From: Escherichia coli
GTDB lineage: Bacteria; Pseudomonadota; Gammaproteobacteria; Enterobacterales; Enterobacteriaceae
NCBI RefSeq assembly: GCF_003991155.1
Contig: NZ_CP031293.1
DNA length: 64,000 nt
Reading direction: 5' to 3' (one strand)
A program made the position numbers and the translations under genes. Within the stretch, counting starts at the first letter, position 1. Each line of letters begins with the position of its first letter. Below the pieces are notes generated by a model. That model had not been told where the DNA came from, did no database searches, and was given only the letters and a program-made list of their open reading frames with translations. Positions 1 through 47,028 of this stretch are shown here, in pieces.

Positions 1-1
1 A

Positions 2-163
2 GCATTAGGCGGAGAAATTAAGGAAGGAAGAGGTTCGCGTTGTAAGTTCATACTAAATATGAGCGTTGCGTGTTTCCATCGGCCTCATCCGTCGCCAGAT
101 ACCGATAAAGGCGCTGTAGAAAGCGTGCGTGACTGGTTACTAAGTATAGGGGTAAAACCATGA
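2..163 (+). CDS. HicA-family toxin-like protein, 5' end truncated by window edge (partial)
   Basis: Open frame running to TGA at 161..163, overlapping the downstream ATG as ATGA. Translation ...EGRGSRCKFILNMSVACFHRPHPSPDTDKGAVESVRDWLLSIGVKP resembles the HicA fold pattern (GS-x-x-x-F ... HP ... D ... G ... L..G). Hand translated; not in ORF track. Confidence 0.45.
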   Translation, partial: ALGGEIKEGRGSRCKFILNMSVACFHRPHPSPDTDKGAVESVRDWLLSIGVKP

Positions 164-519
164 TCAAACTGAAGACGCCAAACTCTATGGAGATTGCCGG
201 GCAACCTGCTGTTATCACTTACGTGCCAGAACTGAATGCATTTCGTGGCAAATTCCTGGGCTTGTCAGGTTATTGTGATTTTGTCTCTGACAGCATTCAG
301 GGGCTGCAAAAAGAAGGGGAGCTTTCCCTGCGAGAGTATCTTGAGGATTGTAAAGCTGCGGGTATTGAGCCGTATGCGCGTACAGAAAAGATTAAGACCT
401 TTACATTACGCTATCCAGAATCGCTGAGTGAACGCCTTAATAATGCGGCTGCGCAGCAACAAGTCTCTGTAAATACTTATATTATTGAAACGCTAAATGA
501 GCGTTTGAATCATTTATAA
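160..519 (+). CDS. HicB-family antitoxin-like protein with C-terminal ribbon-helix-helix-like segment
   Basis: ORF track 119 aa. N-terminal region YVPELNAFRGKFLGLSGYCDF and C-terminal KIKTFTLRYPESLSERLNNAAAQQQVSVNTYIIETLNERL look like a HicB antitoxin with an RHH DNA-binding tail. Start overlaps upstream stop (ATGA). Confidence 0.6.
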   Translation: MIKLKTPNSMEIAGQPAVITYVPELNAFRGKFLGLSGYCDFVSDSIQGLQKEGELSLREYLEDCKAAGIEPYARTEKIKTFTLRYPESLSERLNNAAAQQQVSVNTYIIETLNERLNHL

Positions 520-572
520 ATTTTAGCGGCGTGCATTACGCAGAGTATCTGCCTTTACAGGATCTATCTATG

Positions 573-607
573 TAACTGAACTTAATTTTATAAATTAAGT
601 TCAGTTA
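573..607. terminator. Near-perfect 16-bp-arm inverted repeat between convergent hicB-like gene and nikR; possible bidirectional terminator
   Basis: taactgaacttaattt / aaattaagttcagtta arms read directly from sequence; followed by T-rich tract on + strand. Confidence 0.4.
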
Positions 608-638
608 ATATCTTTTCTTTCCTCGTTTTAGAAATAAC

Positions 639-3441
<2,803 letters not shown>

Positions 3442-5960: not shown

Positions 5961-5998
5961 GGTAACCCCAATGGATTAAAATAGATGGCGGAAATAAG

Positions 5999-6026
5999 TA
6001 TGACGATTTTAAGTATTCGTCATACT
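5999..6026. promoter_or_regulatory. NikR operator (GTATGA-N16-TCATAC) in nikA promoter
   Basis: gtatgacgattttaagtattcgtcatac read directly upstream of nikA; matches the established NikR operator half-site spacing. Confidence 0.7.
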
Positions 6027-43601: not shown

Positions 43602-43640
43602 AATTACTGCGAGCTTGCTCGCAGTAATTCATTTCTCTTA
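43602..43640 (+). terminator. Palindromic terminator after gntU
   Basis: aattactgcgagc-ttg-ctcgcagtaatt perfect palindrome followed by T-rich tract. Confidence 0.55.
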
Positions 43641-43729: not shown

Positions 43730-45826
43730 ATGGAAAAGCACGGAGCTGAATTGCTTTTACAGCGGATGTTAGGAAATACCACCGCTACTTTCAGGGAAGG
43801 GCAATGGGAAGCCATAGATGCAGTGGTTAATCAGCGGCGAAAACTGCTGGTTGTACAGCGCACCGGCTGGGGGAAAAGTGCCGTGTACTTCATCGCCAGT
43901 AAAATCTTCCGCGATCGCGGCGCTGGCCCGACAATTATCATCTCTCCTTTGCTTGCCCTGATGCGTAACCAGGTTGCCGCCGCTGAACGGTTAGGTATTA
44001 CGGCTGAAACGTTGAATTCTACAAACAGGGAAGAATGGCAGCGCATTAGCGATAAGTTGCTGCAAGGTGAGGTCGATTGCTTGCTGGTTTCCCCGGAACG
44101 TTTGGCAAACCAGGACTTTATCGAAACGGTTTTATATCCTATAGCCGATCGTATTGGCTTGCTTGTGGTCGACGAGGCGCACTGCATCTCTGATTGGGGC
44201 CACGATTTTCGCCCGGATTACCGACGTATATTAGATATTTTGCGCCAACTGCCTGCGAATACCCCTGTTCTGGGTACAACCGCGACAGCGAATAACCGTG
44301 TTGTTGAGGATATCCGTCAGCAATTGGGTGACATTGTGATTCAGCGTGGAACGCTGGCTCGCGAAAGTTTGGCGCTTGATGCCTTAGTCTTAGGAGAACA
44401 GTCATCCCGTCTGGCATGGTTAGCAACGGTTATCCCTCAGTTTTCCAAATCGGGAATTGTTTATACCCTGACGACTCGCGATGCTGAACTTGTCGCCGAG
44501 TGGTTAAGGAAAAATGGTATCAGTGCATTTGCTTACTACAGCGGCGTGACTTGTGAAGGCGCGGAAGATTCTAATACTGCCAGGGAATATCTGGAGCAGG
44601 CACTGCTGGCAAATAAAATCAAAGTGCTGGTCGCGACGACGGCATTAGGTATGGGGTTTGATAAACCTGATTTAGGTTTCGTCATTCATTATCAGATGCC
44701 GGGGTCTATTGTCGGTTACTACCAACAGGTGGGGCGTGCCGGGCGTGCTATAGATTCCGCAGTTGGCATATTGCTTTGTGGTGGTGAAGACCGCGCTATT
44801 CATCAATTCTTCCGTGAAAGCGCCTTTCCTGCGGAGGCGCAAATTCATGAAATACTCAACGTACTTAGCGAGAATGACGGTCTTACCCTACGAGGCATTG
44901 AACAACGGACGAATCTTCGTTATGGGCAAATAGAAAAAGCACTGAAATTATTGGTAGCGGAAAATCCATCGCCTGTGGTGTATACCGAGAAATTATGGCG
45001 CAGAACTATCGTCAGTTTTTCTCCTGATCATGAACGAATTAACCATTTGATGAATCAGAGAAAAAGTGAGCTGGCAGACGTTGAAAGCTATATCACGACC
45101 AAGGAGTGCAAAATGCAATTTCTGCGCCGTGCACTCGATGAGCCAAGTGCCGAACGTTGTGGTAAATGTAGCAGTTGTCTTCAACATCCGTTATTGTCGC
45201 CCGACATTGATAGCGGCTTACTCCATGCGGCAAATTTATTTATTAAACACGCTGACCTGCCGTTAAATCTCAATAAACAGGTGGCAGCTGGGGCTTTTAC
45301 GCAATACGGATTTAAAGGGAACTTGCCTGCGGGTTTACAAGGATCTACGGGGCGAATCCTTTCTCGTTGGGGAGATTCCGGGTGGGGAAAGCAGGTAGCA
45401 CAGGAGAAAAAAACGGGGCGCTTAAGTGATGAGCTGGTAGAAGCATGTGCGGAAATGGTTTGCCAACGCTGGAATCCGCATCCTGAACCAACCTGGGTAT
45501 GCTGCGTTCCTTCATTAAGGCACCTCGACCTGGTTCCTGATTTTGCCCGGCGACTGGCGGCGAAACTTGGCTTACCTTTTATTGATGCCATTGAAAAAGT
45601 CGTGGACAATCCACCGCAGAAAATGCAGCAAAACCGTTTTCACCAGTGTCAAAATCTCGACGGGGCGTTTGTGATTACCCCTCCTTTGATGCCAGGTCCG
45701 GCGTTGCTGGTTGACGATATCGTGGATTCTGCATGGACGCTGACAGTTCTGACAGCACTGTTACGCAAGGCAGGTTGCCCGACGGTTTATCCTCTTGCCC
45801 TTGCTTCTACCTCGGTAAAAAATTGA
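43730..45826 (+). CDS. RecQ-family SF2 helicase fused to Cys-cluster and C-terminal ComFC-like phosphoribosyltransferase-type domain
   Basis: ORF track 698 aa. Walker A QRTGWGKS, DEAH box VVDEAHCISDWGHDFRPDY (RecQ-type), TATA motif, motif VI QQVGRAGRA, Cys cluster CGKCSSC, C-terminal PRT-like loop ALLVDDIVDSAWT preceded by ComF-like segment. By my recollection not present at this position in K-12. Confidence 0.8.
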   Translation: MEKHGAELLLQRMLGNTTATFREGQWEAIDAVVNQRRKLLVVQRTGWGKSAVYFIASKIFRDRGAGPTIIISPLLALMRNQVAAAERLGITAETLNSTNREEWQRISDKLLQGEVDCLLVSPERLANQDFIETVLYPIADRIGLLVVDEAHCISDWGHDFRPDYRRILDILRQLPANTPVLGTTATANNRVVEDIRQQLGDIVIQRGTLARESLALDALVLGEQSSRLAWLATVIPQFSKSGIVYTLTTRDAELVAEWLRKNGISAFAYYSGVTCEGAEDSNTAREYLEQALLANKIKVLVATTALGMGFDKPDLGFVIHYQMPGSIVGYYQQVGRAGRAIDSAVGILLCGGEDRAIHQFFRESAFPAEAQIHEILNVLSENDGLTLRGIEQRTNLRYGQIEKALKLLVAENPSPVVYTEKLWRRTIVSFSPDHERINHLMNQRKSELADVESYITTKECKMQFLRRALDEPSAERCGKCSSCLQHPLLSPDIDSGLLHAANLFIKHADLPLNLNKQVAAGAFTQYGFKGNLPAGLQGSTGRILSRWGDSGWGKQVAQEKKTGRLSDELVEACAEMVCQRWNPHPEPTWVCCVPSLRHLDLVPDFARRLAAKLGLPFIDAIEKVVDNPPQKMQQNRFHQCQNLDGAFVITPPLMPGPALLVDDIVDSAWTLTVLTALLRKAGCPTVYPLALASTSVKN

Positions 45827-47028
45827 TGAATCTTTCAGCCAATGCACAAGCGACCCTCCTGCTAACCAGCGATTTTTCTCGCGCGGCGGCGAGTGAGTAT
45901 AAACCTCTTAGTAATAGTGAATGGGGGAAGTTTGCATTATGGCTGAAGCACCAACGTATCAGTCCCGCCGATCTTCTGGTGCCGCAACCGCAAGAGAAAC
46001 TTACAGGCTGGAGCGATCCGCGTATTTCTCAGGAGCGTATTCTTGGCTTGCTGGCGCGTGGCCATAGTCTGGCGTTGGCGGTAGATAAGTGGCAACGCGC
46101 CGGTTTATGGATCTTAACCCGCGGAGATGCCGATTATCCCGTTCGCTTGAAAAACCGATTGCGAACGGATGCACCTCCCGTTTTATTTGGCTGCGGGAAT
46201 AAAGCATTACTGCAAGCGGAAGGTATGGCGATTGTTGGCTCGCGAGATGCTCCGACTGCCGATTTGCGCTATACCCAACAACTGGCAGCGAAACTGGCCC
46301 AACAGGGGATTTGCGTTATCTCTGGTGGTGCGCGAGGTATTGATGAATGTGCAATGGCGTCGGCACTGGAGGCCGGGGGAACTGCCGTTGGCGTATTAGC
46401 TGATAGCTTGTTAAAAACGAGTACGTTAGTGAAATGGCGTGAAGGGCTTATAGCAGGCAACCTGGTGTTGATTTCGCCGTTTTACCCAGAGGTACGTTTC
46501 ACCGTCGGCAATGCGATGGCGCGAAATAAATATATTTATTGCCTTGCTGAAAGCGCAATGGTTGTACGTGCGGGAATGACCGGTGGAACGATAACCGGAG
46601 CGATGGAGGCGTTAAAACATCAGTGGCTGCCTGTGCAGGTTAAACCAAATCAGGATGTGCAATCAGCCAATTCACGATTAGTAGAAAATGGGGCGTCATG
46701 GAGTGCTGAACAGGCTGAGAATGTGACGATCAGACTGCCAGACGTTCCTGGGCTGATGTATGACAGAGCACTCCGTAACGCTCAACCAGAATTGTTTTCG
46801 CTGCACGAAGATGACGCAAATTACGCAGTGATGCCCTCGCATACCCCTGTCGATTTTTATCAACTTTTTGTGGCGGAACTGGCGATCCTTGCAAAGGAAT
46901 CGATAAGTATTGAAAGGCTGGCGTCTTGTACTGGTTTAACCATCGAACAAATTAGTGTGTGGCTGAACCGCGCAGAAGAAGAGGGAAGGGTTATCCGATT
47001 GGGCGAAGGTCATTATCAGTTCAGGTAA
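45826..47028 (+). CDS. DprA/Smf-family (SLOG superfamily) protein, paralog of housekeeping DprA
   Basis: ORF track 45733..47028; likely start ATG 45826 overlapping the helicase stop as TGATG (400 aa). Rossmann-type DprA core AIVGSRDAPTADLRYTQQLAAKLAQQGICVISGGARGIDECAMASALEAGG, N-terminal SAM-like region, C-terminal winged-helix-like tail. Confidence 0.8.
   Translation: MNLSANAQATLLLTSDFSRAAASEYKPLSNSEWGKFALWLKHQRISPADLLVPQPQEKLTGWSDPRISQERILGLLARGHSLALAVDKWQRAGLWILTRGDADYPVRLKNRLRTDAPPVLFGCGNKALLQAEGMAIVGSRDAPTADLRYTQQLAAKLAQQGICVISGGARGIDECAMASALEAGGTAVGVLADSLLKTSTLVKWREGLIAGNLVLISPFYPEVRFTVGNAMARNKYIYCLAESAMVVRAGMTGGTITGAMEALKHQWLPVQVKPNQDVQSANSRLVENGASWSAEQAENVTIRLPDVPGLMYDRALRNAQPELFSLHEDDANYAVMPSHTPVDFYQLFVAELAILAKESISIERLASCTGLTIEQISVWLNRAEEEGRVIRLGEGHYQFR

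Follow-up and report, generated by a model that had tools for sequence, protein, structure and literature searches.

The stem of an intrinsic terminator is GC-rich, 5-14 bp long, and immediately followed by 7-9 U residues; in the two-way layout, a single symmetric hairpin has an A-run on its 5' side and a T-rich run on its 3' side. The palindrome described here, at positions 573-607 of a 64,000-nucleotide stretch of Escherichia coli DNA (the window), resembles bidirectional terminators of this kind in its stable stem-loop, its 3-nt loop, its location soon after a stop codon, and a U-rich tract on a transcribed strand. It differs from them in having a long AU-rich stem and interrupted U-tracts, and in the loss of one tail in the chromosomal arrangement represented by the window (state A). 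REP and BIME elements share with it the form of an extragenic hairpin in a 3' untranslated region and a candidate role in mRNA 3'-end protection, and a BIME-like repeat adjoins the palindrome in a second arrangement (state E). The palindrome, however, is AT-rich rather than GC-rich, has no REP consensus, and is single-copy, whereas its BIME-like neighbor is present at ∼10 places per E. coli genome. Integron attC sites and the terminal inverted repeats of insertion sequences or MITEs invite comparison with a palindrome that lies beside a toxin-antitoxin cassette in variable DNA, but this one has no RYYYAAC/GTTRRRY core sites, no extrahelical bases, and no target duplication, is single-copy, and has no integrase or transposase gene nearby. 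An attC-like site was rejected upon inspection of the core motifs.

The palindrome is a single-copy, chromosomal element that is confined to E. coli, and most likely an ordinary one, an undescribed instance of an AU-rich terminator-like hairpin. The more specific prediction, that it is an AU-rich terminator of the bidirectional type or an RNA 3'-end hairpin, is the reading we favor, tentatively and with somewhat less than even confidence. As the sequence-only reading of the window had stated, the palindrome lies in the gap between the convergent hicB and nikR genes, and in the sense orientation it is downstream of the stop codon of both (Table 1). These gene calls agree with the RefSeq annotation of strain 2016C-3878, which is 100% identical over window positions 1-1100. 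Across state-A genomes, hicA is called as a 91-aa protein, as a 76-aa protein, or not at all (loci L012, L014, and L016-L021), and HicB is identical throughout; the differing calls may mean that the start of the toxin varies or that its gene is decaying. The region upstream of hicA, which is outside the window (locus L007, 2316-2387), contains TTGACT, an 8-bp inverted repeat (TGACTTCA...TGAAGTCA), and two direct GATGTCAT repeats, and these repeats are probably the HicB operator. In the literature searched on the locus, nothing concerned the hicB/nikR gap; the nikR-yhhJ interval appears there only as an entry among Rhs loci (PMC2935791).

Table 1. Features in and around the hicB/nikR gap, by position in the window
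Feature	Positions	Strand	Remarks
hicA toxin gene, 3' part	1-163	+	Truncated by window start
hicB antitoxin gene	160-519	+	119 aa, Pfam HicB; stop codon 54 nt before palindrome
State-A-specific spacer	531-572	.	Between hicB 3' flank and palindrome; only weak 4-5-bp hairpins inside
Left arm	573-588	.	TAACTGAACTTAATTT; base 573 is T here, C in majority haplotype
Loop	589-591	.	3 nt, TAT (TCT at state-E loci)
Right arm	592-607	.	AAATTAAGTTCAGTTA; hit by IS1A (strain G3/10) and, in state E, by BIME-like repeat
nikR-proximal spacer	598-638	.	Distal right arm to base before nikR stop; common to states A and E
T-rich tail	608-622	+ (hicB-sense)	ATATCTTTTCTTTCC; with hairpin, the gap's only terminator-like call
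nikR	639-1040	-	133 aa, convergent with hicB; TGA stop 639-641, 31 nt from palindrome

By a repeat finder, the element is a perfect palindrome of the form 16+3+16, TAACTGAACTTAATTT-TAT-AAATTAAGTTCAGTTA, with 100% complementary arms spaced 3 nt apart; the arm length given in the sequence-only reading was thus correct, and its description of the arms as near-perfect was not. No longer perfect inverted repeat (loop of 10 nt or less) is present in the window, the second longest having 13-bp arms. When the window was simulated with a first-order Markov model (n = 60), the longest arm was 8-12 bp in 59 simulations, 14 bp in one, and 16 bp in none. The palindrome is non-random and far longer than chance allows. 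The 16-nt arm matched only itself in the window, apart from one further hit with 3 mismatches (0.34 expected by chance), and the palindrome occurs there once. The second-longest repeat, AATTACTGCGAGC-TT-GCTCGCAGTAATT at 43602-43629, lies just after the gntU stop codon. An annotated accessory gene pair for a RecQ-family helicase and a DprA-like protein (∼43730-47028) separates gntU from yhgN in the window; we take these two genes to be adjacent in K-12.

The distribution of the palindrome was surveyed in 5,426 complete E. coli genomes. The gap (520-660) was matched in 1,497 of these and at full length in 1,490, always on the chromosome and adjoining nikR, at a median of 1 and a maximum of 2 places per genome. 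The palindrome is present in the 1,490 genomes, in the arrangement yhhJ-hicAB-palindrome-nikR, the number in which hicAB directly adjoins nikR is likewise 1,490, and about 72% of E. coli genomes do not have the palindrome. It was found only in genomes that carry hicAB, so the observation that the sequence-only reading had named as able to refute it, an unchanged palindrome in strains without hicAB-like genes, was not made. A search for further copies, which that reading had proposed, returned one place per genome and one in the window; with 0 occurrences on plasmids and an arm that matches only itself in the window, the palindrome does not have the many dispersed copies of REP, BIME, or ERIC sequences, and a repeated element was rejected.

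To look beyond E. coli, the inner 11+11 pattern was run against one representative genome for each of 100,044 species; it demanded an A-type arm, so diverged variants could escape it, and it returned only E. coli and one contig of a metagenome-assembled genome labeled Citrobacter sp. (DXKH01000111.1, locus L009). This contig is identical to the E. coli locus of the window and is probably mis-binned. A metagenome scan with a looser pattern returned 34 contigs, 33 in the state-A context and one in state E, and nothing new. The plasmid search gave no true hits, only misfiled E. coli chromosomes and one chance 38-nt match in Cytobacillus; the misfiled entries NZ_CP134663.1 and NZ_OL790696.1 are E. 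coli chromosomes of 4.8-4.9 Mb that are filed as plasmids in PLSDB. In the 1,490 state-A genomes, 3 state-E genomes, and 34 metagenome contigs, the palindrome always lies 31 nt after the nikR stop codon. Over window positions 560-620, 127 genomes are identical to the window and about 1,360 differ from it, nearly all by one base. That base is a C at position 573 in every majority-type sequence that was read, and it leaves the outermost pair mismatched and the arms 15 bp long. The 16th base pair is a trait of a minority haplotype.

From the representative genomes fetched, the yhhJ-nikR interval has at least six states. In state D, the empty site (166 genomes), the yhhJ and nikR stop codons are 8 bp apart; in state A (1,490 genomes, with strains E2348/69, ECOR29, and 2016C-3878 as examples), hicAB and the palindrome lie between the two genes. 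State B1, as in O157:H7, reads yhhJ-hicAB-5.7-kb island-nikR (hicB-aldolase junction in about 581 genomes), and the island encodes an aldolase, HPr, an FGGY kinase, PTS IIC/IIB/IIA, and GntR. State B2, as in ST131, has the island without hicAB; the end of the island nearest GntR is present in roughly 1,630 genomes. State C, in K-12 and others, has an RhsB element abutting nikR. State E is a rare long form, yhhJ-hicAB-island-24-nt copy of the nikR 3' end-DUF3829-palindrome-BIME-like repeat-nikR, that is present in 3 genomes and a few metagenome contigs; one strain with this form is O169:H41 Res13-Lact-PER13-34.

Homology of the window to states B, C, and D ends at ∼633-641, at the nikR stop codon, and homology to state B1 on the hicB side ends at ∼531. 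Alignment thus puts the limit of the conserved nik core at ∼638, by the nikR stop codon, with the palindrome 31 nt inside variable DNA. The sequence-only reading had proposed that the palindrome marks the boundary between core and variable DNA; for K-12, empty-site, and island strains, that boundary is 31 nt nearer nikR. The comparison of junctions across E. coli did place one boundary, that between states A and E, exactly at the left edge of the palindrome (572/573), but the boundaries of the common states are elsewhere. The nikR-proximal spacer (598-638) is missing from K-12, empty-site strains, and the ordinary island states; because it is common to states A and E, it travels with nikR. A homologue of the 42 bp specific to state A (531-572) was looked for in all fetched loci, including those of the island states and state E, and none was found.

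State E provides a second context for the palindrome. There, the sequence reads ...GGGAATTAAAA-TAACTGAGCTTAATTT-TCT-AAATTAAGTTCAGTT-CAGTT, followed by the BIME-like repeat, then AGTTCAGTTAATATCTTTTC... and nikR, and a second variant (L029) reads CAACTGAACTTAATTT-TCT-AAATTAAGTTCAGTG. In this state, the palindrome is 7 kb away from hicB; it has nikR on one side and on the other a DUF3829 gene that is read in the same direction as nikR, and it is upstream of the start of that gene, about 115-150 bp from the putative promoter. States A and E have in common both arms and the spacer on the nikR side, and everything to the left of position 573 is unrelated. By this comparison, the palindrome is part of one nikR 3'-flank haplotype, and is neither part of hicAB nor made by insertion of hicAB. 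Its presence 7 kb from hicB also shows that it is not the insertion scar that the sequence-only reading had suggested; in addition, the core junction is at ∼638, and direct repeats, which a scar or a mobile end would be expected to have, were not seen flanking the palindrome. Membership in a hicAB cassette was likewise rejected, as the exact HicB protein occurs nowhere but at this locus, whether the palindrome is present or not. The gene pair is present without it in 581 island-bearing E. coli genomes, and in Klebsiella pneumoniae and K. aerogenes, the gene for a HicB of 82% identity and the convergent nikR are just 27 bp apart, and the palindrome is missing.

The DUF3829 alleles that adjoin nikR (L025, 8999-9979; L029, 207-1190; L030, 2953-3951; L031, 33-1007) have 61-63% protein identity, and despite this divergence, the region upstream of DUF3829, including the palindrome, is nearly identical. 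Protein relatives of DUF3829 are scarce, with 9 hits in a search of 5.8 billion proteins. On the far side of DUF3829, state E contains a 24-nt copy of the nikR 3' end (CGGCAGGCACTGCAAATGCCCGTG; L025, 8874-8897), which suggests that the DUF3829-palindrome-nikR end was gained by recombination within nikR.

Folding was predicted for both strands, as the sequence-only reading had proposed, and each gave a stable hairpin of about -16 kcal/mol. As RNA, the 35-mer forms the full 16-bp stem at -15.8 kcal/mol and the majority 15-bp form reaches -15.3 kcal/mol (z-scores about -8); as single-stranded DNA, the 35-mer forms a hairpin at -12.9 kcal/mol. When the whole gap is folded in prediction, this hairpin is the dominant feature of either strand. 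Its 3-nt loop (TAT, or TCT in state E) is in the 3-8-nt range of terminators. Of the 16 pairs in the stem, just 3 are G-C, and its base is AU-rich (U-A/A-U/A-U), which bears out the earlier remark that the palindrome is atypical for a simple terminator, and from the few G-C pairs and the A-U-rich base, poor terminator efficiency is predicted. Rfam 15 contained no matching family; the best hit, a Wolbachia sRNA (14.7 bits, E = 0.72), is noise, the gathering score of that family being 290.8.

The tails of the hairpin differ between strands and between states. In a consensus scan of the window with a threshold of 5 T in 8, the palindrome was terminator-like on the + (hicB-sense) strand only, where the tail (AUAUCUUUUCUUU/ATATCTTTTC) clears the threshold and AUAUC precedes the U run. 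The nikR-sense tail in state A is CAUAGAUAGAUCC, with no U-tract at all. In state E, it is AUUUUAAUU, or UGGUUUAAUU in L029, and in that contig the scan scored the hairpin as terminator-like on the nikR/DUF3829-sense strand. The state-E variant seen most often carries a C.A mismatch in the nikR-sense hairpin, which is weakened to -11.3 kcal/mol and missed by the scan. Of the two-way layout, state E has the A-run (...GGGAATTAAAA, AAAA) directly 5' of the left arm and the BIME-like repeat between the right arm and the T-rich run; state A has the T-rich run directly after the right arm, in the nikR-side spacer (ATATCTTTTCTTT), and no A-tract in its 5' flank (...ATCTATCTATG).

We propose that transcription of either strand would yield an RNA hairpin of about -16 kcal/mol, with an AU-rich stem of 15-16 bp and a loop of 3 nt, which could act as a weak-to-moderate factor-independent terminator of the bidirectional type and protect RNA 3' ends, thereby insulating nikR from its neighbor. 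In state E, the hairpin follows nikR and precedes the promoter region of the co-directional DUF3829 gene, with AUUUUAAUU or UGGUUUAAUU as its nikR-sense tail. State A would have arisen by a deletion or recombination that ended at the left arm, removed the nikR-sense tail, and brought hicB within 54 nt. The hairpin now faces hicB with its AUAUCUUUUCUUU tail, where it may terminate transcripts from hicAB and keep them from colliding as often with transcription of the convergent nikR. We infer the occurrence of termination or stabilization, and the direction of the change between states A and E, from the structure, the tails, and the two contexts.

Strains with the island have a different hairpin after hicB (AGCGGCCCAACAATTTCTGTTGCGCCGCT plus ATATTTTT). 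It occupies the same position relative to hicB, is of similar stability (-15.7 versus -15.8 kcal/mol), and has a T-rich tail, but it is unrelated in sequence and has a GC-rich imperfect stem, and the gene that shares it with hicB is the convergent aldolase gene and not nikR. In either arrangement, therefore, hicB is followed by a hairpin of ∼-16 kcal/mol and a T-rich tail. Two further observations count against a terminator role. First, nikR does without such a hairpin where 8 bp separate it from yhhJ (the empty site) or 27 bp from hicB (Klebsiella), and second, the palindrome is split by IS1 in an isolate from a healthy gut.

The rival account that survives best, although we consider it rather unlikely, is that the palindrome is a functionless relic of a longer ancestral nikR-DUF3829 intergenic region, kept by low divergence of the spacer and by arm-to-arm templated repair (quasipalindrome correction), by which palindromes stay perfect in the absence of selection. 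The pattern of variation bears on this account. Eight state-A spacer haplotypes have 14 variable columns, none of them in the core at 574-606 (P about 0.012 under a uniform model). The block that is invariant in state A, however, is 547-620, with no variation in 547-572 or 608-620 either, and conservation specific to the palindrome was discounted because the block reaches beyond it. A relic is consistent with this wider block, and also with the absence of the palindrome from ∼72% of E. coli genomes and from Klebsiella with nikR and hicAB intact, with tolerance of the IS1 disruption, and with the poor score by classical terminator criteria. It does not sit well with a 16-bp perfect inverted repeat far beyond chance, nor with a palindrome that is perfect or near-perfect in two contexts with unrelated flanks, beside DUF3829 alleles only 61-63% identical, and that keeps a U-rich tail on a transcribed strand in both. 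Between states A and E, the loop center has changed (A/C), as have the outermost pair and a single position in the stem (A/G). These events are too few for compensatory change to serve as evidence of RNA structure; the lone stem change, A to G, produces G.U on the + strand and C.A on the - strand.

The palindrome is involved in several rearrangements, and these raise the possibility, in our view an unlikely one, of a hot spot for recombination or insertion, at which an AT-rich palindrome extrudes as a hairpin or cruciform or melts easily, attracts breaks, and shapes the states of the interval. In strain G3/10, IS1A lies in the right arm and has duplicated the 9-bp target AATTAAGTT (593-601); target duplications by IS1 measure 8-9 bp (PMC12428005). 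The BIME-like repeat (∼157 bp; L022, 2526-2701; also L025, L026-L030, and L058) consists of REP pairs around an IHF-type spacer, and in all state-E loci it is flanked on both sides by AGTTCAGTT (598-606) in the manner of a target duplication. Together with the break in A/E homology at the left edge, these insertions in the right arm weakly hint at fragility, and the single-strand DNA hairpin and the status of the interval as a catalogued Rhs locus also favor a hot spot.

In the O157:H7 strain TR01 (GCF_003722195.1; L001, 190-233 and 6001-6063), the 5.7-kb island replaces 572-597, with state-A spacer (528-571 and 598-638) on both sides. This locus may be a real recombinant, which would add to the case for a hot spot, or an assembly or polishing chimera; it was down-weighted as an independent breakpoint because both of its junctions are unique among the 5,426 genomes, which fits a chimera. 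IS1 generally favors AT-rich DNA, and this preference suffices to explain the IS1A insertion without the palindrome. Further evidence against a hot spot is that the boundaries of the common states are elsewhere, at ∼531 (island) and ∼633-641 (RhsB, empty, island), that queries containing the palindrome bias the sample toward nearby events, and that the annotated neighborhood contains no recombinase or integrase gene. That the palindrome is a structure-prone fragile site which seeds shuffling of modules between yhhJ and nikR, by extrusion of the 35-bp AT-rich dyad, seems to us quite improbable; in this reading, extrusion would supply the breaks at which the island was gained and lost, the BIME-like repeat and IS1 were inserted, and states A and E were joined, and if it were so, a variable region of the pan-genome would have a sequence-encoded driver without a dedicated recombinase.

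Least probable, and in our judgment very unlikely, is that the palindrome serves as an operator, or as an architectural site, to which a dimeric protein binds (such as a regulator acting on the DUF3829 promoter or an AT-favoring nucleoid protein), for although the dyad symmetry is perfect, the site lies upstream of the DUF3829 start in state E, and the changes seen spare most arm positions, typical operator half-sites are far shorter than 16-bp arms around a 3-bp center, the palindrome is kept in 1,490 genomes without the DUF3829 gene, and 573-607 contains no NikR operator (GTATGA-N16-TCATAC), has no resemblance to the dyad TTGTCTATGGACAA upstream of the island GntR gene, and shares just 5 of 8 bases with the inverted repeat of the hicA promoter. 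Comparison with the motifs of NikR, GntR, and HicB gave no convincing operator likeness. The GTATGA-N16-TCATAC motif does occur elsewhere in the window, within AGTATGACGATTTTAAGTATTCGTCATACT (5997-6026), 37-66 nt upstream of the nikA start (5960, - strand), in a dyad that we take to be the classical NikR operator.

Based on the above comparisons, the yhhJ-nikR interval consists of modules that are independently present or absent: hicAB, the PTS/aldolase island, DUF3829, RhsB, the BIME-like repeat, and IS1. This mosaic is a more useful result than the palindrome itself, which is a handy marker of one nikR-flank haplotype, and nothing in it should surprise a specialist. If the AU-rich hairpin does terminate or stabilize transcripts, it would set the 3' end of a chromosomal HicAB toxin-antitoxin operon in about a quarter of strains. 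The operon would then be insulated from the convergent nickel regulator gene, which, while of modest practical value, would matter for annotation and engineering of the locus.
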